A stretch of 64,000 nucleotides of DNA from Clostridiales bacterium (GTDB lineage Bacteria > Bacillota > Clostridia > Lachnospirales > WQUN01). Below the pieces are notes generated by a model that was not told the DNA's origin, made no database searches, and was given only the letters and a program-made list of their open reading frames with translations. The first letter of the stretch is position 1. The number at the start of each line of letters is the position of its first letter. The stretch covers positions 609-64,608 of the forward strand of contig JAITSQ010000028.1 in the NCBI GenBank assembly GCA_031287685.1, in the 5' to 3' direction. The translations under genes and the position numbers were made by a program. This document shows positions 5,009 to 55,449 of the stretch, in pieces.

Positions 5009-5253
5009 TAAGAACCTGTTCCCATAGGTATAAATGCCGGATCCCCTCGTTTTCGCTTCGCGAAAACGCTCGTGACGAGCGAATTTTTACAGCTTCAAGG
5101 CGCGATGAGCGCCGCGTACCCGTACTCGGTGTTTTTTCGTGCCTAATGCCGCACGAAAAAGCCACCTTCTTGGTACGCAAGCGAAGCGCAACGAATAAGC
5201 CGTAAAAATTCGCCGTAAAGTCGGCGTCTATATCCTATGGGAACAGGTTCTAA
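5009..5253. repeat. Family A repeat, copy A2 (long form, ~190 nt extra interior)
   Basis: Arms AAGAACCTGTTCCCATAGG (5010-5028) and CCTATGGGAACAGGTTCT (5234-5251). The interior holds a nested hairpin GCGAATTTTTAC (5079-5090) / GTAAAAATTCGC (5202-5213). Confidence 0.8.
5125..5172 (-). repeat. Hairpin module H, single copy inside A2 (reverse orientation)
   Basis: The reverse complement reads CAAGAAGGTGGC-TTTTTCGTGC-GGCATTAG-GCACGAAAAA-ACACCGAG. This is near-identical in layout and loop to module 1 of B1 (8430-8479). Confidence 0.7.
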
Positions 5254-8247: not shown

Positions 8248-8379
8248 CGCGCCGGCCTCCGAAACAAAATGAGTGACTATTTATTATATCACAACTTACA
8301 TTTTTACGCAACTGTCTTTTCTGACTTTTTAAGGCCTAATACTAATCCCTGATTTCTTTCCGGTGCGATTTTTGCGTTT

Positions 8380-8622
8380 TAGAGCAATTCCATGTTTGAT
8401 TGGCGTTCTTCAAGCCGAAAATCGCGGGCAAGAAAGGGGCTTTTTCGGGCGGCATTAGGCCCGAAAAAACACCGGCACGAAGGGGGCTTTTTCGCGGGGC
8501 AGTAACCGCGAAAAAACACCGGCACGAAGGGGGCTTTTTCGCGGGGCAGTAACCGCGAAAAAACACCGGCTTTAACGCGTTTTCGGAGCGGAATAACGCC
8601 AATATCAAACGGAATTGCTATA
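8380..8622. mobile_element. Family B MITE-like element, copy B1 (three H modules), nested in C1
   Basis: TA-GAGCAATTCC...GGAATTGCTA-TA. The uninterrupted site in C2 has a single TA. Confidence 0.8.
8430..8570 (+). repeat. Three tandem H hairpin modules (8430-8479, 8480-8526, 8527-8570)
   Basis: Unit AAGGGGGC-TTTTTCGCGG-GGCAGTAA-CCGCGAAAAA-ACACCGGCACG. Modules 2 and 3 are identical. Confidence 0.85.
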
Positions 8623-8807
8623 AGCGAAGTTTGACGACTATTTTAATCGGGATTAGTATAATAACATTATTTACGTTTATCATAACATAGCCGCCATAAA
8701 AAAATCAAGCCGGTTCCGCGCGAATCCGCAAAATTTTGTTGTGTTTCCCGCCGAGTTCAATTATAATTAAGACAATACCGTTACATCATTTATAAGGAGG
8801 ATTTTTT

Positions 8808-10796
8808 ATGAGCCAATCGGAAAACCAGACCATTTCCGCAATCCGTTTCCTGGCGGCGGACGCCGTGCAGAAAGCCAACTCCGGCCACCCCGGCCTGCCT
8901 CTCGGCGCGGCCCCGGCCGCCTATACCCTTTGGGCCAAACACCTTCGGCACAATCCCAAAAACCCGAAATGGCAGGCCAGGGACCGTTTCGTACTCTCCG
9001 CCGGCCACGGCTCAAGCCTTCTGTATTCGCTCCTGCATATTTTCGGCTACGGGCTTAGCCTGGACGATATGAAAAGCTTCCGCCAGGCGGGGAGCCTGAC
9101 CCCCGGACACCCCGAATACCGCCACACCCCCGGCGTGGAAGTGACCACCGGGCCGCTCGGCCAGGGCATAGCGAACGCCGTCGGCTTCGCTATGGCGGAG
9201 GCGCACACGGCCGCCGTTTTCAACACGCCCGACTTTAAGTTCGTGGATAACTATACCTACGCTCTCTGCGGCGACGGCTGCCTTATGGAGGGAATAGCGC
9301 ACGAGGCGGTTTCCCTGGCGGGAACTCTCCGGCTGAATAAGCTGATTCTGCTTTACGACTCAAACGGCATAACCATAGAGGGCAGCACGGGCATAGCCTT
9401 CCGGGAGGACGTGCGCGCGAGTTTCACCGCCTGCGGCTGGAACGCCCTGCTCGTAGAGGACGGCAACGACGTCTCCTCCATAGACGCGGCTATCGCGAAA
9501 GCCAAAACCTCCGACAAGCCCACAATAATTGAGGTTAAGACTATTATCGGCTACGGCGCGCCCAACAAGCAGGGCAAGCAATCCGCGCACGGAGAGCCGC
9601 TCGGCGCGGAGGAACTGTCCGCCGCCAAGAAAAACCTCGGCTACGACCATCCGCCGTTCACTGTGACGGAGGAAGTCCGCGCTCATATGGACAGCGTAAT
9701 CAAAGGCTTAGAGGCGCTTGAGGCCGATTATAACAAGCGGTACGACGCTTACCGGGCCAAAAACCCCGAAGCCGTAAAAAAATATGAGGATTTCCTGTCG
9801 GGAAAGCTCCCCGATTTGCTGAACAATGAGGATTTCTGGACATTTGAAGGGAATCTGGCCACGCGCGTATCCTCCGAAACCGTGCTGAATAAGGTGTGCG
9901 CGCTCGTGCCGTCGCTTTTCGGCGGCTCCGCCGACCTGGCCCCCTCTACAAAGACCCTGATGAAAGGGCGGGGCGATTTCTCGGCGGAAACCCCGGAGGG
10001 TTCTAATGTCCATTTCGGCATACGGGAGCACGCGATGACCGCCATAGCCAACGGAATAGCGCTTTACGCGCCGCTTATCCCCTACGTTTCGGGCTTCTTT
10101 GTTTTCTCTGACTATATGAAGCCCGCAATGCGCATTTCCGCGCTTATGGGCCTGCGCGTAATCAATATCCTGACGCACGATTCTATCGGCGTGGGCGAGG
10201 ACGGACCCACGCACCAGCCAATTGAGCAGCTGGCGGCGCTCCGGAGCATACCTAACTTTACCGTAGTTCGCCCCTGCGACTCCAACGAAACCGCCGCCGC
10301 TTGGTATATCGCGCTTAACAACACAAACGGACCCACGGCCCTCGCCCTGACCCGCCAAAACCTGAAGCTCCTGCCGGAAAGCGGCAAGGGCGCGCTTAAA
10401 GGCGCGTATATACTTAAAGATTCCGAAAAAGCCGTGCCTGACGTTTTGCTTATGGCCTCCGGCTCCGAAGTGGGCTTAATCTATGACGCTTGGGAAATCC
10501 TGCGGAAAGACGGCGTTGACGCGCGGGTCGTAAGCATGCCCTCCTGGGAGGTTTTCGAGAAGCAGGACGCCGCGTATAAGGAAAGCGTCCTCCCCCGCGC
10601 GGCGCGCGCTCGTCTGGCGGTGGAAGCGGCCTCCCCGTTCGGGTGGGAGCGCTACGTCGGCCTTGACGGGAAAATTATAGCTATGCCCGGCTTTGGCGAG
10701 AGCGCCCCGGCGGACGCGCTGTTCCCGAAATTCGGGTTTACGGTTGAAAACGTGGTCAAGGCGGCGAAAGAAGCCGCCGAGGCCAATAAAATATAA
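8808..10796 (+). CDS. tkt: Transketolase
   Basis: Motifs SGHPGLPLGAAP, GDGCLMEGI and THDSIGVGEDGPTHQPIE. Confidence 0.95.
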   Translation: MSQSENQTISAIRFLAADAVQKANSGHPGLPLGAAPAAYTLWAKHLRHNPKNPKWQARDRFVLSAGHGSSLLYSLLHIFGYGLSLDDMKSFRQAGSLTPGHPEYRHTPGVEVTTGPLGQGIANAVGFAMAEAHTAAVFNTPDFKFVDNYTYALCGDGCLMEGIAHEAVSLAGTLRLNKLILLYDSNGITIEGSTGIAFREDVRASFTACGWNALLVEDGNDVSSIDAAIAKAKTSDKPTIIEVKTIIGYGAPNKQGKQSAHGEPLGAEELSAAKKNLGYDHPPFTVTEEVRAHMDSVIKGLEALEADYNKRYDAYRAKNPEAVKKYEDFLSGKLPDLLNNEDFWTFEGNLATRVSSETVLNKVCALVPSLFGGSADLAPSTKTLMKGRGDFSAETPEGSNVHFGIREHAMTAIANGIALYAPLIPYVSGFFVFSDYMKPAMRISALMGLRVINILTHDSIGVGEDGPTHQPIEQLAALRSIPNFTVVRPCDSNETAAAWYIALNNTNGPTALALTRQNLKLLPESGKGALKGAYILKDSEKAVPDVLLMASGSEVGLIYDAWEILRKDGVDARVVSMPSWEVFEKQDAAYKESVLPRAARARLAVEAASPFGWERYVGLDGKIIAMPGFGESAPADALFPKFGFTVENVVKAAKEAAEANKI

Positions 10797-14525: not shown

Positions 14526-14593
14526 TAGAACCTGTTCTCATTAGGTAGAAAGGCGGGAATCCGGCGTTTATATCCTATGAGAACAGGTTCTTA
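14526..14593. repeat. Family A repeat, copy A3 (short form)
   Basis: Arms TTAGAACCTGTTCTCATTAGG and CCTATGAGAACAGGTTCTTAA. Confidence 0.8.
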
Positions 14594-19102: not shown

Positions 19103-20104
19103 TTACGCCTTGAGCGCCCCCTCCACGGCTACGGCCACGGCTACCGTCGCGCCGACCATCGGATTGTTACCCATACCGAGGAAGCCCATCATTTCAACGT
19201 GCGCGGGTACGGAGCTGCTTCCGGCGAACTGCGCGTCGGAGTGCATACGGCCCATCGTGTCGGTCATACCGTAAGAAGCCGGGCCGGCCGCCATATTGTC
19301 CGGGTGAAGCGTGCGGCCCGTGCCGCCGCCCGAAGCCACGGAGAAATATTTTTTGCCGAGATCGACACATTCCTTTTTATAGGTGCCCGCGACGGGGTGC
19401 TGGAAGCGCGTCGGGTTTGTGGAGTTGCCCGTAATGGACACGTCCACGCCCTCCTTATGCATAATAGCCACGCCTTCGCGCACGTCGTCCGCGCCGTAGC
19501 AGCGAACGGTTTTGCGCTCACCCTGAGAATACTCGATTTCCTTTATTATGTTCAGCTCCCCGGACATATAATCGAACTGGGTCTGTACATAAGTAAAGCC
19601 GTTTATGCGGGAGATAATCTGCGCCGCGTCCTTGCCCAGGCCGTTGAGGATAACTCGCAGAGAGGATTTCCGGCTTTTGTTGGCGTTCCGGGCTATGCCT
19701 ATCGCGCCCTCCGCCGCCGCGAAGGACTCGTGTCCCGCCAGAAAAGCGAAACACTTCGTGTCGTCGCGAAGGAGCATCGCGCCGAGGTTGCCGTGGCCAA
19801 GCCCTACTTTCCTGTCCTCCGCCACTGAACCCGGTATGCAGAAGGACTGGAGGCCTATTCCTATATCCTCCGCGGCTTCGGCGGCGCCTCCGCGAGCCTT
19901 TTTCAGCGCGATAGCCGCGCCCACGACATACGCCCAGCAGGCGTTTTCAAAGGCAATCGGCTGAATCCCTTTTGTTATATTGTAGGGATCAATCCCCTTG
20001 TCCTTGCAGATTTTTTCCGCTTCCTCAATAGAGCCGATTCCGTTCGCGGACAGGGCCGCGTTTATTTTGTCTATGCGGCGCTCGTAGCTTTCAAATAATG
20101 ACAT
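19103..20104 (-). CDS. GGGtGRT family protein (function unknown)
   Basis: Contains the eponymous SGGGTGRTLHPD motif. Confidence 0.8.
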   Translation of the reverse strand: MSLFESYERRIDKINAALSANGIGSIEEAEKICKDKGIDPYNITKGIQPIAFENACWAYVVGAAIALKKARGGAAEAAEDIGIGLQSFCIPGSVAEDRKVGLGHGNLGAMLLRDDTKCFAFLAGHESFAAAEGAIGIARNANKSRKSSLRVILNGLGKDAAQIISRINGFTYVQTQFDYMSGELNIIKEIEYSQGERKTVRCYGADDVREGVAIMHKEGVDVSITGNSTNPTRFQHPVAGTYKKECVDLGKKYFSVASGGGTGRTLHPDNMAAGPASYGMTDTMGRMHSDAQFAGSSSVPAHVEMMGFLGMGNNPMVGATVAVAVAVEGALKA

Positions 20105-20121
20105 TTTAAGCCGCCCCCTTT

Positions 20122-22258: not shown

Positions 22259-22363
22259 ATACTAACCTCAGATTAAAAAGGAGACAAACGAGCGCTGCAA
22301 AACGCCAGAGGGCGTTTTGCGTTTTAAGCGAAGTTTGACGACTATTTTAATCGGGATTAGTAT
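22259..22363. repeat. Family C repeat, copy C2 (uninterrupted)
   Basis: Termini ATACTAACCTCAGATT and AATCGGGATTAGTAT; internal hairpin GCAAAACGCC-AGAG-GGCGTTTTGC. Confidence 0.8.
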
Positions 22364-27394: not shown

Positions 27395-27650
27395 ACTGAA
27401 TATTCGCGCTTTTTGCGCCGGGGAGGCTTCCGCTTTAGGCGATGCCCCGCTCGGTGGGGAAATGGAATCCGGTGAAAATCCGGAGCGTGTGCGGCTGAAA
27501 AGCCAATCACCGACGCCGTGAGCGCATTGAGGCCGCAAGCCGAGGCGAAAGCCGGTCACTGTTCCTCCTTGGAATGGGAAGGCTGGGTTGCGGACGCGGA
27601 AATCCTCTTGGATTTCCGGAATTGCGTAAGCCGGAAGACGAGCAGGGGGC
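27395..27650 (+). promoter_or_regulatory. Cobalamin riboswitch (aptamer)
   Basis: GGGGAAATGGAATCCGGTGAAAATCCGGAGC, B12-box-like GGTCACTG...GGGAAGGC and 3' AAGCCGGAAGACGAGCAGG. Confidence 0.75.
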
Positions 27651-27658
27651 GTTATCCG

Positions 27659-27690
27659 CGCGGGGCGTTTCCGCTCCGGATTTTTTTACG
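27659..27690 (+). terminator. Riboswitch expression-platform terminator
   Basis: CGGGGCG-TTTC-CGCTCCG stem (one G-U pair) followed by GATTTTTTT. Confidence 0.55.
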
Positions 27691-27796
27691 CACCCGCGTT
27701 GGTTAAATGTTTATGGGAATACGGCCATTGACGACTTTTGTGTTGTCGTGGCCTTTTATATTGCGTCCGCGGAAAACGACCTACAGGAGGGGTTTT

Positions 27797-30796
27797 ATGA
27801 GAAACACAAGGTTTTCCGGGCGCTTCGCGGCGTTTTTGCTGTCGTTCTTAGCGGCGGTTTCCGGCCTGCGCGTCCCGGCGCTCGCGTCGGGTTCCGTCAG
27901 CGTTGCGCTGTCTTATCAGGCGGACGGCAGCGGGTTTCGCCTGGCGCGGCGGGCAGTCGCCGTTTCGCCGGGGCTTTCGGAGGAATACGGGTACGCGGAC
28001 GCGTATTACGGCACGGCCGCGACTGCCCTTGACGCTATTGTCGCCGCGCATATCGCGGCGCTCGGCGAAGGCAATGTAAGCGGCAGCCTAACGGTCGGCC
28101 CGACGGGCTTTTTGTCAAACTTTATGGGCGACGGCTCCGGTAATTTCGTCTATTTCGTCAACGGCTCCCTCTCGGGCGCGGCGGCGGGTTCTGTGCGGCT
28201 GAACGACGGCGACGCCGTGGAACTATTCTCTATACAGGACGCCTACGCTTATTCAGACGCGCGCGCCTGGTTCGAGCGCGACGGTAAGCGTGCCGGCGCG
28301 CTTACCGTCGGCAAGGGCGTTAGTTTCGACCTCGCCCTCAAGGGGATTGATTGCGTAATTTACGGCGAAGGCTCCGGCGCGGGCCTTTACGGATACAGGG
28401 ACGGGATTGAGGGCGCGCTTGCCGTCCTTCTGGCGGACGACCCCGACGGCGGCGCTTATATCGACGCCCCCTTAGGCGAAACGGGCGCGGGCGGCGTTAT
28501 TTCGCTTTCTTTCGACACTCCGGGGCTGTATATCCTTTCGGCGATTGATTATGACACCGATTACGGCTTTCCGCTGATGTCGCCGTGGCTTGCGGTCACG
28601 GTGACGAATAGCGGCGGCGCGCCCGCGGTCACGTCAAGCGGCTTTGCCAACCCGCCGCCCGCGCCCCTCGCGCCGTCGGAAGTCCGGACCGACGCGCGGA
28701 CGGCCCTCGGCGACACTTTGTCGTACCTAGTCAGCAGCCAGGCCCCCTCCCCCCAATACGGGCAAGAGTGGGAAATCCTCGCTCTGGCCCGCTCCGGGCG
28801 CTCCGTCCCGGCTGGATATTACGAAGGGTATTACGCCAGCGTCAAGGACAAACTGGCGCGAGTCAGCTCGAATCAGCTCTCCGCCAATTCCACGGATAAT
28901 TCCCGCCTGGCCCTGGCGCTGACGGCAATCGGCGTTAACGCGGCTAACGCGGAGGGGCGCAATCTGCTCGCTCCCCTCGCGGATTATGACTACGCCACGG
29001 GTCCGGGCATAAACGGCGCGGTTTACGCGCTTCTGGCTTTCGACGCGAAAAATTACGCCATACCGCCCGCGCCCTCCGGAGGCGCCCAAACGTCGCGGGA
29101 GAATCTCATAGCGTTTATTCTGGCGCGGGAGCTTCCCGGCGGCGGCTTTTCGTGGAGCGGCGCGGGCGAGATAGACCCGGACATAACGGCAATGGCCCTG
29201 CAGGCCCTCGCGCCCTATAAAAACAGCAGCGCGGACGCCGGCGCGGCAATCGCGCGCGCTCTGGCCAAGCTGACGGCGGCGCAGGATTATTATGGCGGGT
29301 ACGCCTCGTGGGGCAGCGTCAGCGCGGAAAATATGGCGCAGGTCATAGTGGCGGCGGCGGCGCTCGGCCTTGACCCCTCGGCGGACCCGCAATTTACGAA
29401 AGGCGGCGGCAGCGCCGTTTCCGCGATGCTCCGGTTTTACGCGGACGGCGGCGGCTTCCAAAGCGCTTCCTCCCCAGGCGCGGCTAACGCCATGTCCACA
29501 TATCAAGCGGCTTACGCGCTCGCCGCCTATAGCCGCCTGCTGAATCACCAAAATCCGCTGTACGATATGCGCGACTGCGATATCACCCTGACGGAGGGCG
29601 GCGGCGGTCAGTCCGGCGGCGGGGGAAGCGGCCCCGGCGGCTCCACAAGCGCCGTCACGGAGATAACTGTCGTTTTCCGGCTAATCGGCGGCACAATACA
29701 CCTTGACGGCGCGGAGGGCCACTCTCGGTATATCGAATGGATTCCGTACTCGCGGTATAGTTTTGAGCAAAACCAAGTCAGCGTCTGCGACGCGCTGCTT
29801 CGCGCGCTGAACGAAGCGGGGCTTGACCAGGAGGGCGCGGAGGGCAATTATCTTTCGGGAATCCGCGCGCCCGCCTCTCTTGGCGGCTATTGGCTCCGCG
29901 AGTACGACGACGGGCCGTATTCCGGCTGGCTGTACTCGGTAAACGGCGTTTATCAGCAAACCGGCATTAAAGATTATCTGCTTTCCGACGGCGACGTCGT
30001 GCTCGTGCACTACACCGACGATTATACGCGGGAAACGAATCTTGACAATTCAGGCGGCGGCACGGGCGGCGGCGGGGTCTCCGGCGGCGGGGCGGCCAGC
30101 GAAACCGAGCCGCCCCCTATCGCCGCTTCCGAAACCGCGCCGCCGAAGGAAAACACGCTCCCCGACGACGAGGGCGAGGACCCGGACGAAAAAACCGACG
30201 CGCCGCGAGAATTCCCCTCGGAGGGCTGGGAAAACCCCTTCAGCGACGTTTCCTCCGACGACTGGTTTTATGAGGCGGTCCGAGAGGCCCAGACAAGCGG
30301 CTTAATGGTCGGGCTTCCCGACGGCTCTTTCGCGCCGGATTCCCCGGCGACGCGTGCTATGGCGGCGCAAATCCTTTTCCGGTTTGAGAAAGAACCCGAA
30401 GCGGCGGGCGCCGAATTTGACGACGTTAAATCTGGCGACTGGTACGCGGACGCGGTGGCTTGGGCCAGCGAGCGCGGCGTCGCCCAAGGGTACGGCGGCG
30501 GGCGCTTCGGCGCGGGCGACGGCCTCACTAACGAGCAGCTAGCGGTTATGCTGCGCCGCCTCGCCGGGCTGATTGGCATAGACACGACGGAAACGGAATC
30601 GGAACATTATCCGCGCTTCGCGGATACAGGCGGCGCTTCGGAATGGGCCGAAGCCGCCGTGAAATGGGCGTATCCTAAGGGTTTGCTTGCTCAAGAATCC
30701 CCGGAGGCGATTAACCCAAAAACCGTCCTGACCCGCGCCGAAGCCGCGCATATAATTACAACATTTTTGAAGCTTGCTGTACAGCGAAGTGAATAA
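27797..30796 (+). CDS. Secreted SLH-anchored protein with two DUF4430 domains and a prenyltransferase/transcobalamin-like alpha/alpha toroid
   Basis: AGGAGG SD before ATG 27797. Signal peptide is followed by a DUF4430-like segment, toroid repeats (GGGFSW, DPDITAMALQAL), a second DUF4430 segment (YSVNGVY...DGDVVLVHY) and three SLH motifs. Confidence 0.8.
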   Translation: MRNTRFSGRFAAFLLSFLAAVSGLRVPALASGSVSVALSYQADGSGFRLARRAVAVSPGLSEEYGYADAYYGTAATALDAIVAAHIAALGEGNVSGSLTVGPTGFLSNFMGDGSGNFVYFVNGSLSGAAAGSVRLNDGDAVELFSIQDAYAYSDARAWFERDGKRAGALTVGKGVSFDLALKGIDCVIYGEGSGAGLYGYRDGIEGALAVLLADDPDGGAYIDAPLGETGAGGVISLSFDTPGLYILSAIDYDTDYGFPLMSPWLAVTVTNSGGAPAVTSSGFANPPPAPLAPSEVRTDARTALGDTLSYLVSSQAPSPQYGQEWEILALARSGRSVPAGYYEGYYASVKDKLARVSSNQLSANSTDNSRLALALTAIGVNAANAEGRNLLAPLADYDYATGPGINGAVYALLAFDAKNYAIPPAPSGGAQTSRENLIAFILARELPGGGFSWSGAGEIDPDITAMALQALAPYKNSSADAGAAIARALAKLTAAQDYYGGYASWGSVSAENMAQVIVAAAALGLDPSADPQFTKGGGSAVSAMLRFYADGGGFQSASSPGAANAMSTYQAAYALAAYSRLLNHQNPLYDMRDCDITLTEGGGGQSGGGGSGPGGSTSAVTEITVVFRLIGGTIHLDGAEGHSRYIEWIPYSRYSFEQNQVSVCDALLRALNEAGLDQEGAEGNYLSGIRAPASLGGYWLREYDDGPYSGWLYSVNGVYQQTGIKDYLLSDGDVVLVHYTDDYTRETNLDNSGGGTGGGGVSGGGAASETEPPPIAASETAPPKENTLPDDEGEDPDEKTDAPREFPSEGWENPFSDVSSDDWFYEAVREAQTSGLMVGLPDGSFAPDSPATRAMAAQILFRFEKEPEAAGAEFDDVKSGDWYADAVAWASERGVAQGYGGGRFGAGDGLTNEQLAVMLRRLAGLIGIDTTETESEHYPRFADTGGASEWAEAAVKWAYPKGLLAQESPEAINPKTVLTRAEAAHIITTFLKLAVQRSE

Positions 30797-30906
30797 AAGC
30801 TGAAAAACCGTGATAAAACCCTCGAAAACCCGATGAAGTCATTGACCGCGGGCGCGAAACCAGCGACGCGGCCGGCAAACTCACGCGGGTTCCGGCGACG
30901 CCAAGC

Positions 30907-30937
30907 AAATTGCCAACCTTCGAGGTTGGCAATTTTT
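30907..30937 (+). terminator. Intrinsic terminator
   Basis: AAATTGCCAACC-TTCGA-GGTTGGCAATTT followed by TT. Confidence 0.65.
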
Positions 30938-31022
30938 GAGCTTAATAATTTACCTCGCTTGGGCGAAAACGGAGGCGCCTTGCCCATTTCCTCAAGGCGA
31001 TAAACAGCGCTACAGGTTGAAA

Positions 31023-31256
31023 CTACCGCGTGATTGCAGAGGTTTTAGTTTCCGCGTTCCAGGCGACATTTGCGCCCAAAGCCTCTGAAGGAAACCTCAA
31101 GGCCACAAACAAGCAGTCATTTCGGATTTGAGCGGAAACGTCCAGCTCAACCAGGCCGCCATTTACATAGTCTGGGAAAGAGAGGATAGTAAACGCCTGA
31201 AACTCAGGCGTCAATAAGGAAAACGGTTGTCCATTTTTCCAAGATGGCGTCTGTGT
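31023..31256 (-). pseudogene. Remnant of a copper-amine-oxidase-N-terminal ('stalk') domain protein
   Basis: VNGGLVELDVSAQIRNDCLFVALRFPSEALGANVAWNAETKTSAIT. The frame opens directly after an in-frame TAG, with no plausible N-terminus. Confidence 0.5.
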
Positions 31257-31310
31257 CTACATCAATATCTAAAATAAACAGATTCTCTTTTAGTATCACG
31301 ATATGGTAAT

Positions 31311-31351
31311 AGTACACTGTGTTTTAAGTACACTGTGTTTTAAGTACACTG
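31311..31351. repeat. Tandem repeat, 16-nt unit AGTACACTGTGTTTTA x 2.6
   Basis: Direct reading of the sequence. Confidence 0.9.
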
Positions 31352-31572
31352 GCAGTTAATTGAACCTTATTTTTGGAAGGAGTCCAAATTACTCGGCCAT
31401 ATTCATCAGGCTCATACAACCCCAACTTTCGTTCAGGATCGAAAGCGCCCTCTGTTTCAGGAGGAATGGGGGCATAAAGCCATCCATTCCGAATGAAAAC
31501 CTGCCCCGAAATGAGGGCTTTCAGTTTCATTGAAAAACAAATTAATGAAAGTATCCGCGTCAGGCGCGCCAA
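31324..31572 (-). CDS. Hypothetical small ORF (possibly a gene fragment)
   Basis: ORF only, in a lower-GC patch; its 3' end runs into the tandem repeat. Confidence 0.25.
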   Translation of the reverse strand: MARLTRILSLICFSMKLKALISGQVFIRNGWLYAPIPPETEGAFDPERKLGLYEPDEYGRVIWTPSKNKVQLTASVLKTQCT

Positions 31573-31633
31573 TAGCAGGCGTATTACCCGCCTGTGCGGA
31601 TATGGCAGGAATAACGCTCCTTATTAAAATCCC

Positions 31634-34574: not shown

Positions 34575-34727
34575 ATAGCAGTTGAACAATGGGTTGACGC
34601 GAACTTGCTCGGTGTTTCTGATTGTCTAAAAAAGATTTAGACAATCAGAAGCCTCCTCCTTGTTCGCGGAAAACCCATTTGTGAGACTGCCGCTCTTTTA
34701 CTTTTCATGGTTCAGGAAAAGTAAAAG
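34575..34727. repeat. Family D repeat, copy D1
   Basis: About 90% identical by eye to 53487-53639. Long hairpin GCAGTTGAACAATGGG...CCCATTTGTGAGACTGC plus hairpin CTTTTACTTTTC/GAAAAGTAAAAG. Confidence 0.85.
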
Positions 34728-34731
34728 AACT

Positions 34732-36633
34732 CTATGCCTTGTCCTTTATTTCCTTTAATATTCTGTCAATAAACGGCTGCGCGGGCTGTTCGCCCTCCTC
34801 GCCGGCGCGGCTCCGGACGGAAACCGTGCCCGCTTCGGCCTCCTTTTCCCCCACGACAAGTATATACGGAACGCGCCCGTTCCTTGCCTCGCGGATTTTG
34901 AAGCCGATTTTCTCGGCGCGCAGGTCGGTCTCAACGCGGATTCCAGCTGTGTCAAGCTTTTCGGCGACGGCGGAGGCGTAATCCGCGTATTTGTCCGAAA
35001 TCGGCAACACCGCCGCCTGCACCGGCGAAAGCCACAGCGGGAACGCCCCCGCGAAATGTTCGGTAAGAATTCCTATAAACCGCTCAATACTGCCGAAAAC
35101 GACGCGGTGAATCATCACCGGGCGGTGCGCGGCCCCGTCCGCTCCGACGTACTCAAGCCCGAACCGCTCCGGCATCTGGAAGTCCAGCTGAACCGTGCCG
35201 CACTGCCACGTCCTGCCGAGCGAATCCTCAAGGTGAAAATCAATTTTCGGGCCGTAAAAAGCCCCGTCGCCCTCGTTCACGGCGTAAGGGAGGTTAAGGT
35301 CACCGAGAGCCTCTTTCAGCGCGTTTTCGGCGCGCTCCCAGTCCTGGGCGGCGCCCATGCTGTCCTCTGGGCGGGTGGACAGCTCCACGTAATACTTAAA
35401 GCCGAATTTTGTGTAAACGCCGTCAATAAGCGCGATTACTCCTTTTATCTCGTCCTTGACCTGCTCCGGCGTCATAAAGATATGCGCGTCGTCCTGCGTG
35501 AAGGCGCGGACGCGCATAAGCCCGTGGAGCGTGCCGGATTTTTCGTGCCGGTGGACTATACCAAGCTCCCCCATTCTGAGCGGCAAATCCCGGTACGAGC
35601 GGGTGTTAAGCCCGTAAACGAGCATTCCGCCGGGGCAGTTCATAGGCTTCAGGGCGTGCTCCTTGCCCTCGATTTCGGTAATGTATATATTGTCCTTGTA
35701 GTGGTCCCAGTGGCCGGAGCGCTCCCATAGGGCCTTATCAAGCATAAGCGGGCTTAAAATCTCCTTATAGCCCGCCGCTTTATGGATTTCACGCCAGTAG
35801 TTTATAAGCTCGTTTTTCAAAATCATACCCTTGGGCAGGAAAAACGGGAAGCCCTGACCCTCCTCCAGAATGGCAAAAAGCTCAAGCTCCCGGCCGAGTT
35901 TGCGGTGGTCGCGCTTTTTGGCCTCTTCTATCCGCTCAAGGCGCTCGGCAAGCTGGCTGGCTTTCGGGAAGCTAACCCCGTAAATCCGCGTCAGCATCTG
36001 GTTTTTCTCGCTCCCTCGCCAGTACGAGCCTGACACGGACGTCAGCTTGACCGCTTTGACCGGCGCCGTGGTCATTAAATGCGGCCCCGCGCAAAGGTCG
36101 ATAAAATCCCCCTGTTTATAAAAAGAAAGCGGAGCGTCCTCCGGCAGGTCGTTTATAAGCTCTATCTTATACGGCTCGCCGCGTTCCCCCATAAGTTTAA
36201 GGGCCTCCGCGCGCGGCAGCTCGAAATACTCAAGAGGCAGCTCCTCTTTGGCGATTTTTTTCATTTCCTCCTCAATCGCCGGAAGCTCCTCGGCCAGCAT
36301 CGGCCGCGAAAACTCAAAGTCGTAATAAAACCCGTTCGCGACAGCGGGTCCGATGGCCAGCTTCGCGTCCGGGTAAAGGCGCTTGACCGCCTGCGCCATT
36401 ATGTGCGAGCTTGTGTGCCAGAACGCCTTTCTGCCGCCCTCGCCGTCGAAAGTTTCTATGGACGCCTCCGCGTCCGCGTCTATGGGAAAGCGCAAATCCC
36501 GCAAGCGGCCGTCCACGACCGCCGCGCACGCAGCCTTCGCGAGCCCCGCGCCTATATCCCCCGCGATTCGGGCGGGGCTTACGGCTTCGGCGTATTCTTT
36601 TACCACGCCGTCTTTCAGCGTTACTTTAATCAT
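34732..36633 (-). CDS. thrS: Threonine-tRNA ligase
   Basis: TGS start MIKVTLKDG, class II motifs, and an AAGGAG SD before ATG 36633. Confidence 0.97.
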   Translation of the reverse strand: MIKVTLKDGVVKEYAEAVSPARIAGDIGAGLAKAACAAVVDGRLRDLRFPIDADAEASIETFDGEGGRKAFWHTSSHIMAQAVKRLYPDAKLAIGPAVANGFYYDFEFSRPMLAEELPAIEEEMKKIAKEELPLEYFELPRAEALKLMGERGEPYKIELINDLPEDAPLSFYKQGDFIDLCAGPHLMTTAPVKAVKLTSVSGSYWRGSEKNQMLTRIYGVSFPKASQLAERLERIEEAKKRDHRKLGRELELFAILEEGQGFPFFLPKGMILKNELINYWREIHKAAGYKEILSPLMLDKALWERSGHWDHYKDNIYITEIEGKEHALKPMNCPGGMLVYGLNTRSYRDLPLRMGELGIVHRHEKSGTLHGLMRVRAFTQDDAHIFMTPEQVKDEIKGVIALIDGVYTKFGFKYYVELSTRPEDSMGAAQDWERAENALKEALGDLNLPYAVNEGDGAFYGPKIDFHLEDSLGRTWQCGTVQLDFQMPERFGLEYVGADGAAHRPVMIHRVVFGSIERFIGILTEHFAGAFPLWLSPVQAAVLPISDKYADYASAVAEKLDTAGIRVETDLRAEKIGFKIREARNGRVPYILVVGEKEAEAGTVSVRSRAGEEGEQPAQPFIDRILKEIKDKA

Positions 36634-38715: not shown

Positions 38716-38740
38716 CGAAAACTTGCCAGCCCTACGGAAA

Positions 38741-38768
38741 ACAGGGCCGCAATAAAAAGCGGCCCTGT
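38741..38768. terminator. Bidirectional terminator hairpin (rpoC 3' end)
   Basis: ACAGGGCCGC-AATAAAAA-GCGGCCCTGT with T-runs on both strands. Confidence 0.7.
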
Positions 38769-38789
38769 TTTTATTCCGTTTTTATTCTG

Positions 38790-42941
<4,152 letters not shown>

Positions 42942-47138: not shown

Positions 47139-47335
47139 TAGAGCAATTCCATGTTTGACTGGCTTGTTTCGAGCCGAAAATCGCGGGCAAGAAGGCGGCT
47201 TTTTGGCGCGGCAGTAGGCGCCAAAAAACGCCGAGCAAGAAGGGGGCTTTTTCGCGGTTACTGCCCCGCGAAAAAACACCGGCTTCAACGCGTTTTCGGC
47301 GACGAAAGAAGCCTATGTCAAACGGAATTGCTATA
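47139..47335. mobile_element. Family B MITE-like element, copy B2 (two H modules)
   Basis: TA-GAGCAATTCC...GGAATTGCTA-TA; modules at 47189-47236 and 47237-47283. Confidence 0.8.
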
Positions 47336-53383: not shown

Positions 53384-53489
53384 TAGAGCAATTCCTTGTT
53401 TGGCTTGCTGCTTTCGAGCCGGAAATCGCGATGCTTTAACGCGTTTCCGGCGATGAATAAGGCGGCTTATGTCAAACGGAATTGCCATA
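53384..53489. mobile_element. Family B MITE-like element, copy B3 (no module)
   Basis: TA-GAGCAATTCC...GGAATTGCCA-TA. Confidence 0.8.
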
Positions 53490-53639
53490 GCAGTTGAACA
53501 ATGGGCTGCCGAGAACTTGCTCGGTGTTTGTGATTGTCTAAAAAAGATTTAGACAATCACAAGCCCCCTCCTTGCTCGCGGGAAACCCCTTGTGAAACTG
53601 CCCACACTTTTACTTTTCATAGTTCTTGAAAAGTAAAAG
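53487..53639. repeat. Family D repeat, copy D2
   Basis: Homologous to 34575-34727; abuts B3 at the shared TA. Confidence 0.85.
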
Positions 53640-53643
53640 CGCT

Positions 53644-55317
53644 TTAGTCCTTCAGCTCAACCTTGATTCCAAGCAAGCCCTCCGCGTTTCTGGCTATTTC
53701 CTCAGCCGTCCTTTCGCGGGGCTTTGCCGGCTCGTCGAACCGCGTCTTGTATTCCGACGCGCCCACGTATTCTATTTCCGTTTCCGGGGAAACGCCGAAT
53801 TTTTCCGCCATAAGCGGCAGGATAACCGCGCTGTAGGCCGACGCCCGCGCCCGCACCAAGGTTTCCACCCCGTCCTCCACTATTATAAGCAGCCGCCCGC
53901 CGTCCGGCGCGGCGCGGCTTTTGCCCAGAAGCTCCTTTATGGGAAGCTCCTTTGAACCGTCGGAAAACGAGCCTGTGAAGCCGGCCCAGCCCTCCGCGAT
54001 TTTTTTAAGCTCCGCCGAGCCGGGCGGGCGGAGCTTACGTTTGTCCGCCGCTTTTTTCTTTTCGGGCGGCCCCGCGGCTTTTTCCGCCGGTTTCCCCCGT
54101 TCCTCGGACAAGGCCCGGACGGCCTTCCGCAGTTCCTCCAGCTGCGCCTTAAGCTCGCCGATTTGCTCCGCTTGCTCCTCGCCGGCCTGAGGAGCGCCCC
54201 CGGCGCGGGCCGGGCCGGCCGCCTCCGGGCGGCAGAGCGCCACGCACGCCGCCTCAAGCATAACCCGCTCGGACGCCGCGTAGCGCAGATTCCCCAAAAG
54301 CTCGGAAAACGCCTCAATCCCCCGGATTATCAGGCTCATCGGAAGGCGCGCCGCCTGCTCCCGCAGGAGGGCGATAGTCTCTCCCGAAGCGCTGACGCTT
54401 ATATTGCCGTTTTGCTGAACCTTGGCCGCCAGCAGGTTGCGGAAATGCGAAAGCGCCTGCCTCGCGAAGCCGGAAATATCCCGCCCAAGGCAGGCCTGCC
54501 CGTCTATAAGGCTCATACATTCCCCCATATCGGCCTTAAGGACAGCCTCCGCCAGCGCGAAAAACACGGAAATATCCGACGCTCCCAAAAGCTCCAGCGT
54601 CTTTTCAAGGCTGATTTCCTCGCCGAAGTAAAACGACGCGCACTGCTCCAGAATACTCAGGCAATCCCTCATAGCCCCGTCCGACGCGGAGATTATAAAC
54701 CGCAGGGCCTCGTCTTCTATCTTTATGCCCTCGGCGGCCGCGTACCCCCTCACCGCGTCAAACATCACCGCGCCGCTTATGCGCTTAAAATCAAAGCGCT
54801 GACAGCGGGAATGAATAGTCGCGGGGATTTTCTGCGGGTCGGTCGTGGCCAGTATGAAAATGACATATCCCGGCGGCTCCTCAAGGGTTTTGAGGAGCGC
54901 GTTGAACGCGCTCGCCGACAGCATATGCGCCTCGTCGATGATATATACCCGGAAATTTCCCGACGACGGAGGGTAGGCGGATTCCTCTATAATCCCCCGG
55001 ACGCTGTCAACGCCCGTGTAGTCCGCCGCGTTGATTTCCGATACGTTCAGCGAAGCGTCCCGCAGTATCTCAAGGCAGACCGGGCAGGCGTTGCAAGGCT
55101 CCCCCTCCCGCGGGTTTTCGCAGTTGACCGCGCGGGAGAGGAGCTTCGCGGCGGAAGTCTTTCCGCAGCCGCGCGTGCCGCAAAAAAGGTAGGCGTGGGC
55201 GAGCCTGTTCGATTTCAGCTGATTTATAAGCGTTTTGACAATATGCTCCTGCCCGAGAACGTCCGAAAAGTTTTTCGGGCGCAGCTTCCTGTAAAGAACC
55301 GTATGACTTGCTGACAT
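53644..55317 (-). CDS. dnaX: DNA polymerase III subunits gamma/tau
   Basis: HAYLFCGTRGCGKTS and VYIIDEAHML. Confidence 0.95.
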   Translation of the reverse strand: MSASHTVLYRKLRPKNFSDVLGQEHIVKTLINQLKSNRLAHAYLFCGTRGCGKTSAAKLLSRAVNCENPREGEPCNACPVCLEILRDASLNVSEINAADYTGVDSVRGIIEESAYPPSSGNFRVYIIDEAHMLSASAFNALLKTLEEPPGYVIFILATTDPQKIPATIHSRCQRFDFKRISGAVMFDAVRGYAAAEGIKIEDEALRFIISASDGAMRDCLSILEQCASFYFGEEISLEKTLELLGASDISVFFALAEAVLKADMGECMSLIDGQACLGRDISGFARQALSHFRNLLAAKVQQNGNISVSASGETIALLREQAARLPMSLIIRGIEAFSELLGNLRYAASERVMLEAACVALCRPEAAGPARAGGAPQAGEEQAEQIGELKAQLEELRKAVRALSEERGKPAEKAAGPPEKKKAADKRKLRPPGSAELKKIAEGWAGFTGSFSDGSKELPIKELLGKSRAAPDGGRLLIIVEDGVETLVRARASAYSAVILPLMAEKFGVSPETEIEYVGASEYKTRFDEPAKPRERTAEEIARNAEGLLGIKVELKD

Positions 55318-55349: not shown

Positions 55350-55449
55350 ATAGAGCAATTCCATGTTTGACCGGCTTGTTTCGAGCCGAAAATCGCGGGC
55401 TTCAACGCGTTTTCGGCGATGAAAGAAGCCGGTCAAACGGAATTGCTCT
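55350..55449. mobile_element. Family B MITE-like element, copy B4 (minimal 100-nt form)
   Basis: Near-perfect long hairpin TAGAGCAATTCCATGTTTGACCGGCTT...AAGCCGGTCAAACGGAATTGCTCTA. Confidence 0.85.

Follow-up and report, generated by a model that had tools for sequence, protein, structure and literature searches.

A 47-nt hairpin module, single or in tandem, at the tips of intergenic repeats in an uncultured Clostridiales bacterium

The stretch of DNA analysed here, referred to as the window, is 64 kb of chromosomal DNA on contig JAITSQ010000028.1, from one metagenome-assembled genome (MAG) of an uncultured member of the Clostridiales. Its genes are of a housekeeping character and include lgt, mreB, flgF/flgG, tkt, a gene of the NFACT family, ABC transporter genes, pyrG, efp, sigA, dnaG, thrS, ssb, rpoC, rpoB, typA, recR, ybaB, dnaX, ftsY, prmA and hisS. 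The transketolase (8808-10796) is 100% identical to the MAG protein MDR3091749.1, while its next relative is only 72% identical and has a different upstream synteny. Scattered between these genes are several families of small palindromic repeats, and at the tips of some of them lies a 47-nt hairpin-forming unit, which we call H. There are six H units in the window, with none to three in tandem at each host-hairpin tip, and two further units of a variant that we call H'. The copies of H, the repeats that host them and the possible routes by which the module came to occupy its present positions are described below.

The H module and its copies

The six H units are listed below by position, strand and content, with scores from a covariance model of H that was built from the six units and then scanned over the window. 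B1 and B2 are copies of host repeat B, and A2 is a copy of a second palindrome family, A.

8430-8476, plus strand: H unit B1-M1, stem TTTTTCGGGC/GCCCGAAAAA, loop GGCATTAG; 73.4 bits
8477-8523, plus strand: H unit B1-M2, stem TTTTTCGCGG/CCGCGAAAAA, loop GGCAGTAA; 75.1 bits
8524-8570, plus strand: H unit B1-M3, in sequence the same as B1-M2
47189-47236, plus strand: H unit B2-M1, 48 nt, stem TTTTTGGCGC/GCGCCAAAAA, loop GGCAGTAG; 68 bits
47237-47283, plus strand: H unit B2-M2, stem as in B1-M2, loop TTACTGCC (flipped)
5125-5171, minus strand: H unit of A2, stem TTTTTCGTGC/GCACGAAAAA, loop GGCATTAG, at the tip of the inner hairpin 5079-5213; 71.4 bits

The covariance model recovers the six copies at 64-75 bits (E-values of 1e-14 to 1e-17), and the rest of the window never exceeds 35 bits. 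A pattern describing the H core gives 11 strand-matches at six loci, both strands counted, against 0.02 expected. These results bear out the first-pass annotation of this DNA, which had placed three copies in B1, two in B2, none in the other two B repeats (B3 and B4) and one in reverse orientation in A2; its loop sequences are also as we find them. The homology of the A2 copy is clear from its 71-bit score and from its identity to B1-M1 at 41 of 47 positions, with one stem pair compensated.

The arrays are strictly head-to-tail, and for B1 Tandem Repeats Finder reports a period of 47 and 3.1 copies. In both B1 and B2 the order of unit types is the same, with an M1-type unit (a loop ending in TAG) followed by the M2 type (a CGCGG stem), and the two arrays are thus probably homologous. 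B1-M2 and B1-M3 are identical, as had been noted before, so that a recent tandem duplication is the likely source of one of them. No solitary H was found in the window, either with the covariance model or in pattern scans for the flanking boxes.

Each unit consists of a conserved 5' box (AAGRAGGnGGC), a hairpin with a 10-bp stem and a loop of 8 nt, and a conserved 3' box (AACACCG(A)GC), and in every copy the feet of the stem are GGC followed by TTTTT on one side and AAAAA followed by AC on the other. The stem is paired in 50 of 50 sequence-by-pair cells, all of them Watson-Crick and none G-T, although three of its pairs are altered on both sides; the observed score was matched in none of 500 shuffles, nor in any slid register. 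An outer helix of 4 bp, GGXG/CYCC, is complete only in B2-M1, as GGCG/CGCC, and in A2 (X:Y being C:G and T:A, respectively), and as a real feature of H it is suggestive only.

The loop of B2-M2, TTACTGCC, is the exact reverse complement (8 of 8 positions) of GGCAGTAA, the loop of B1-M2 and B1-M3, with stem and flanks unchanged. When scored on the reverse strand, the hairpin of B2-M2 reaches 35 bits, compared to 19-22 bits for the other five, and the flipped hairpin proposed earlier is therefore well founded. Taken together, the lack of G-T pairs and the inversion of the loop point to a process acting at the level of DNA rather than to selection on an RNA.

In single-strand DNA folds of the hosts, all H units are found at the apical loop of the hairpin that carries them, in agreement with the earlier description, and the minimum free energy and centroid folds of B1 and B2 alike show a separate 10-bp hairpin for each unit at the host apex. 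In such an apical and independently folding position, H leaves the stem of the host undisturbed.

Host repeats, the variant module and database searches

The four copies of host repeat B are listed here together with a corresponding empty site.

8382-8620, plus strand: B1, terminal inverted repeats GAGCAATTCC(AT)GTTTGA and TCAAACGGAATTGCTA, flanking TA at 8380-8381 and 8621-8622; three H
47141-47333, plus strand: B2, TA on both sides; two H
53386-53487, plus strand: B3, TA on both sides; no H; lies between dnaX and ybaB and abuts a D4 repeat (D4b, below)
55353-55448, plus strand: B4, TA on both sides; no H; 95% identical to the arms of B2
22315-22363, plus strand: empty site of 49 nt, TTTTGCGTTT-TA-AGCGAAG..., which equals the flanks of B1 joined by a single TA (repeat family D7, 100% identity)

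Host B is a mobile MITE (a miniature transposable element of the inverted-repeat type) with terminal inverted repeats and TA duplication. Its 5' end, GAGCAATTCC..GTTTGA, matches the reverse complement of its 3' end, TAGCAATTCCGTTTGA, and the arms GAGCAATTCC(AT)GTTTGA... and ...TCAAACGGAATTGC pair together in the folds of B1 to B4. Each of the four copies has a TA on either side, and comparison of the filled site at B1 with the empty site at 22315-22363 shows that B duplicates TA. The Correia elements of Neisseria are likewise TA-duplicating MITEs with terminal inverted repeats. No transposase or parent insertion sequence for B was found in the window, a BLAST search with B1 against plasmids and phages gave no match, and neither did a search for the B terminus in viral contigs.

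The arms of B also show compensated changes between copies, with GATTGGCG/CGCCAATATC at 8400-8409/8599-8608 in B1, GACTGGCTT/AAGCCTATGTC at 47160-47168/47310-47318 in B2 and GACCGGCTT/AAGCCGGTC at 55371-55378/55429-55436 in B4, and the left terminus keeps its AT bulge, which indicates that the host hairpin is maintained as well, albeit asymmetrically. The 49-nt sequence of the empty site is present a second time as 8370-8381 plus 8621-8659, where it is split by B1. This duplicate holds a promoter-like TTGACG-17-TAGTAT (8631-8659), followed in the B1 copy, upstream of tkt, by TATAAT; at the other copy a hairpin resembling an intrinsic terminator, GCAAAACGCC-AGAG-GGCGTTTTGC, lies just upstream, its 3' arm overlapping the start of the duplicate.

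The carriage of H does not follow the relatedness of the B arms. With H removed, B2 and B4 are 95% identical, whereas B1 is 86% and 84% identical to B2 and B4, respectively; yet it is B1 and B2 that carry H, and B4 is without it despite its closeness to B2. The apical loop of B4, CGCG-GGC/TTCAA-CGCG, is exactly what remains once the arrays are taken out of B1 and B2. Given that the arrays of B1 and B2 are probably homologous, an empty B4 would imply either a precise loss in the B4 lineage or the transfer of an array between B copies.

The remaining hosts are A2 and two copies of a palindromic repeat, D4, which carry the variant form of the module.

5011-5251, plus strand: A2, an A-family palindrome with arms AGAACCTGTTCCCATAGG and an insert of about 180 nt that includes the inner hairpin 5079-5213, which holds H
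34575-34679, minus strand: D4a, palindromic repeat downstream of thrS
53490-53591, minus strand: D4b, 91% identical to D4a, downstream of dnaX and adjoining B3
34608-34661, minus strand: H' at the tip of D4a, a different, 15-bp hairpin between the flank boxes AAGGAGGAGGCTT ... AAACACCGAGC; 25.3 bits, E-value 8e-5
53520-53573, minus strand: H' at the tip of D4b, whose stem differs from that in D4a by one compensated pair (C:G to G:C); 24.9 bits

The A family comprises palindromes at 802-864, 5011-5251 and 14527-14591 with arms AGAACCTGTTCCCATAGG / CCTATGGGAACAGGTTCT. Two of these copies measure 63-65 nt, and A2 reaches 241 nt owing to its apical insert of about 180 nt, which contributes two further hairpins (5048-5068 and 5079-5213). 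A2 thus has three levels of nesting and is situated between flgF and flgG, inside an operon. The inner hairpin that hosts H is single-copy in the window.

The H' units were overlooked by the first-pass annotation and surfaced as the next-best matches to the covariance model, with E-values of about 1e-4. They share the flank boxes of H, namely C-AAGGAGGnGGCTT ... AAACACCGAGC-AAG, with AAGRAGGnGGCTT on the left, but enclose a hairpin of 15 bp with a 5-nt loop in place of that of H; in the DNA folds of D4 they too are apical. A combined pattern of the two flank boxes occurs at eight sites in the window, these being the six H units and the two D4 tips, against 0.08 expected. Mismatch-free left boxes are confined to H and D4 within the window. 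A further match to the left box at 20108-20120 was discounted, as it is the ribosome-binding site of the gene starting at 20104. H is therefore best defined as two conserved boxes that flank a perfect but replaceable hairpin.

The D4 repeats are themselves part of a larger composite of about 166 nt, in which the palindrome is accompanied by an AT-rich hairpin of 14-16 bp (CTTTTACTTTTC...GAAAAGTAAAAG, at 34694-34728 and 53606-53640). The composite is present twice, at 34575-34740 and 53487-53652, each time directly behind the stop codon of a core gene on the minus strand (thrS and dnaX, respectively); the AT-rich hairpin has no T-tail and so is not a canonical terminator. B3 and D4b abut, with the TA at 53488-53489 in common, and occupy the dnaX-ybaB intergenic space of a dnaX-ybaB-recR cluster. 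Mosaics of repeats such as this one resemble the clusters formed by bacterial interspersed mosaic elements (BIME), BOX elements and pneumococcal RUP elements.

H or H' is thus found in three unrelated host families, namely B, the inner hairpin of A2 and, in variant form, D4. The junctions show short direct repeats (B, GGC; D4b, GAGCAAG; A2, GTAC), which are inconsistent in length and sequence and may be target duplications, partial units, chance matches or microhomology from a copying event. The proposal that the module spreads independently of its hosts holds in part: H is separable from them, to judge from the three host families, its absence from two of the four B copies and a carriage at odds with arm relatedness.

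Searches for related sequences and functions were largely negative. Pfam comparison of about 48 open reading frames of the window found no transposase, including any of the Y1/HUH type. Neither H, A, B nor D4 matched Rfam 15, whether at the gathering threshold or at E-values up to 5. An intrinsic terminator was rejected as a reading of H, its T-run preceding the stem and pairing with the A-run, with no U-tract after the stem; a terminator scan gave one weak candidate on the minus strand, no more than in shuffled sequences. A CRISPR-like reading, with constant parts of 27-29 nt and variable parts of 18 nt, was likewise set aside, in that the variable parts are related palindromes and include no spacers.

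Beyond the window, the exact H core pattern was run once against genomes and once against metagenomes and matched only one orthologous locus. This is a conserved hairpin of a 5' untranslated region, seen in an Oscillospiraceae MAG from sheep omasum (2509-2546) and in a metagenome contig (1014-1046); the gene downstream of it encodes a product that is probably secreted or of lipoprotein type. As the stem is imperfect and the flank boxes of H are missing, the locus is taken to be a chance match and is probably unrelated. In viral contigs a loose flank pattern matched at least 120 loci; 80 of these were rescored with the H model, none reaching more than 21 bits. No copies of H were found in viral, plasmid or phage collections, and a search of a protein database found no open reading frames called across B or H elsewhere.

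A few other features of the window are given for completeness. The sole Rfam match to pass its threshold is a cobalamin riboswitch at 27425-27661 (RF00174, 39 bits), and the gene downstream of it (27707-30796) encodes 1029 aa with SLH and DUF4430 domains. Downstream of that gene is a perfect 16-nt tandem repeat, AGTACACTGTGTTTTA x 2.6 (31311-31351), in a region of about 800 nt (30797-31633) whose sole open reading frame encodes 82 aa (31324-31572, minus strand). A weak sraL match (38738-38875, minus strand; 26.9 bits against a gathering threshold of 39, E-value 0.057) overlaps both rpoC at its 3' end and a set of short tandem repeats (38767-38867), and is probably due to chance. No tRNA or tmRNA was found.

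Origin and spread of the module

The reading that we favour, with moderate confidence, is that H is a boxB-like internal module, variable in number, of composite BOX-type interspersed repeats. BOX elements have the structure boxA-(boxB)n-boxC, in which a tandem array of a variable number of boxB modules of about 45 nt lies between boxA and boxC (Croucher et al., 2011; PMC3049150). In that account, boxB when folded makes few contacts with boxA and boxC, hence it may be missing or multiple, and the length of the array varies between strains.

If H is a module of this kind, it would spread mainly as a passenger of its hosts, mostly of B, and its copy number (0, 0, 2 and 3) would change when replication slips on the 47-nt units or these are exchanged unequally, a suggestion supported by the identity of B1-M2 and B1-M3. 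Precise loss of whole arrays, or their movement between copies, could also occur and would account for B4 being empty even though no other copy is as closely related to B2. The first entry of H into its three hosts may have been by rare insertion, or by short-homology recombination, at exposed hairpin tips. As for the hairpin itself, template switching is reported to yield multi-base compensatory changes together with the inversion of loops of up to 7-8 nt (PMC8794818); by analogy, intra-strand template switching during replication could restore a perfect Watson-Crick stem after mutation and could also invert the loop, as in B2-M2.

Several points weigh against this interpretation. The sample is small, being 64 kb of one MAG with six H units, two H' units and effectively two or three independent host contexts. 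Conserved flanks around a variable but always perfect stem are also what recognition by a structure-specific enzyme would be expected to produce, and it is not obvious that passive processes predict a position that is exactly apical in every context. Slippage, array loss and template switching are inferred rather than observed, copy number may be inaccurate in a MAG assembled from short reads, and the link to streptococcal BOX is one of architecture, homology not being expected given the taxon and the GC content.

Another possibility, which we consider doubtful but worth weighing, is that H is an actively mobile miniature element, inserted into the single-stranded tips of hairpins or cruciforms by a structure-specific enzyme, such as a Y1/HUH protein resembling the REP-associated tyrosine transposases (RAYTs) of repetitive extragenic palindromic (REP) sequences, or by a palindrome-targeting insertion sequence. 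The occurrence of H or H' at the exact tip of three unrelated host hairpins speaks for such activity, as do the mismatch between H carriage and host-arm relatedness and the short direct repeats at the junctions; moreover, flank boxes that are kept around a stem free in sequence but constrained in structure are typical of the sites of structure-specific recombinases, and insertion sequences that target palindromes are documented (PMC1525189). However, no transposase was found among about 48 open reading frames of the window and no solitary H lies within its 64 kb, the head-to-tail arrays lack a GTAG or CGTC tag and differ from the inverted dimers of REPs (PMC3733652), the junction repeats agree neither in length nor in sequence, and the apparent homology of the B1 and B2 arrays could reduce the history of H to perhaps as few as three insertion events. 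It is a bolder step, and an unlikely one in our estimation, to regard H-type units as a distinct class of tiny mobile 'hairpin cassettes', placed in apical loops by an enzyme acting on single-stranded DNA, with H as a parasite of MITEs. On that reading the apical recurrence, the conserved boxes around a swappable hairpin (H versus H') and the mismatch with relatedness would be footprints of tip targeting. Were H actively targeted to hairpin tips, it would point to an undescribed mechanism of structure-directed insertion.

It seems quite improbable that the structure of H is under selection for a cis-acting function, either as a hairpin for RNA stability or processing or as a protein-binding site, in which case its occurrence in several repeats would be due to selection and not to mobility. 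Stem pairing that is perfectly kept through compensated changes would fit this idea, and the elements are intergenic beside core genes (tkt, rpoB, dnaX, thrS and flgF-flgG), partly inside operons; in addition, boxB modules are reported to modulate the expression of neighbouring genes (PMC3049150). Yet an inverted loop on an unchanged stem is an event at the DNA level that would wholly alter the loop sequence of an RNA, there is not one G-U among the 50 stem cells, hosts that are otherwise alike carry anything from 0 to 3 copies, there is neither an Rfam match nor a terminator-like tail, and orientation relative to the flanking genes is inconsistent. Finally, it is very improbable that short-read metagenome assembly created the tandem copies and the flipped loop. 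The contig does belong to a MAG, and its repeats of 47-240 nt are near typical short-read lengths; yet the units differ in a structured and compensated manner, the junctions with unique flanks are clean on either side, independent loci show the same architecture, and there is no obvious route by which an assembler would invert an 8-nt loop in a 28-nt palindrome with its context kept. What could be in doubt, at most, is the exact copy number (2 versus 3).

We regard H as a real and well-defined new repeat family with a BOX-type modular architecture, and as such fairly ordinary. If the BOX-like interpretation is correct, modular composite repeats with a variable internal hairpin would not be confined to streptococci but would also be present in distant uncultured Firmicutes, and the locus would offer a compact example of nested small repeats, of the precise gain and loss of modules and of hairpin maintenance at the level of DNA, with compensated stems and a flipped loop such as are attributed to template switching in replication. 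Such elements beside core genes (rpoB, dnaX, tkt and the flagellar rod genes) can mislead assembly, gene calling and the inference of RNA structure, the last because compensatory changes of the kind seen here need not mean a functional RNA.

Comparison with known systems

The first-pass annotation had likened H to REP/BIME sequences and their RAYTs, and this analogy does not hold well. REPs have a tag at one foot, GTAG or CGTC, and are mostly arranged as inverted dimers, head-to-head or tail-to-tail (PMC3733652), whereas H has no such tag at the foot of its stem, its arrays are head-to-tail and not alternating, and no Y1/HUH or other transposase was found among about 48 open reading frames of the window; among H copies GTAG occurs only within the loop of B2-M1. 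REPs often contain G-T pairs and H contains none, and Firmicutes are not among the phyla given for GTAG/CGTC repeats in the survey of REPs considered here. There is nonetheless some likeness, in that REP/BIME sequences are intergenic palindromes of about 30 nt, with subfamilies that have alternative complementary residues in the stem and with clustered arrays, and both they and H are proposed to be processed as single-stranded hairpins (PMC3733652; PMC3333891).

The insertion sequences IS1397, ISKpn1, IS621 and ISPpu9 (PMC1525189) are a precedent for mobile DNA that enters small intergenic palindromes; they are, however, full-length and encode a transposase, while H is 47 nt and non-coding. 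Host B, which without H is about 100 nt long and has an empty site within the same window, resembles TA-duplicating MITEs such as the pneumococcal RUP, with terminal inverted repeats like those of IS630-Spn1, in having terminal inverted repeats, a long hairpin, an intergenic position and a duplicated TA (PMC3049150). This likeness belongs to host B, since the only inverted repeat of H itself is its central hairpin and it shows no consistent target duplication.

With the hairpins attributed to template switching by Monttinen and Loytynoja (2022; PMC8794818), H shares perfect stems, multi-base compensation in what would be a single event and a loop inverted between unchanged stems. In contrast, that study followed RNA genes across phylogenies, whereas the units compared here are paralogous and in one genome, and the process is one that we infer.

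The closest parallel is with the BOX elements of Streptococcus pneumoniae and Streptococcus suis (PMC3049150). Like the B-(H)n elements, these are composite intergenic repeats shorter than about 650 nt, with terminal modules that pair with each other and an internal module of about 45-47 nt that is arranged head-to-tail, varies in number (3, 2, 0 and 0 in B1 to B4) and folds largely apart from the terminal modules. In S. suis there are two BOX families, with terminal modules A/C and E/F around one boxB, and the presence of boxB under different terminal modules parallels that of H in B and A2 and of the flank boxes in D4. Terminal inverted repeats and duplication of the target site have also been reported for BOX elements, and they cluster with, and insert into, other repeats, as do the repeats of the window. 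On the other hand, H comes from a different phylum-level lineage and a DNA of about 55% GC, and it has a perfect, compensated 10-bp hairpin, a flipped copy and a variant hairpin within the same flanks, features that the passages considered here do not describe for boxB. The likeness is thus one of architecture, sequence homology is not claimed, and H and boxB are to be taken as having the same architecture and not as members of the same family.

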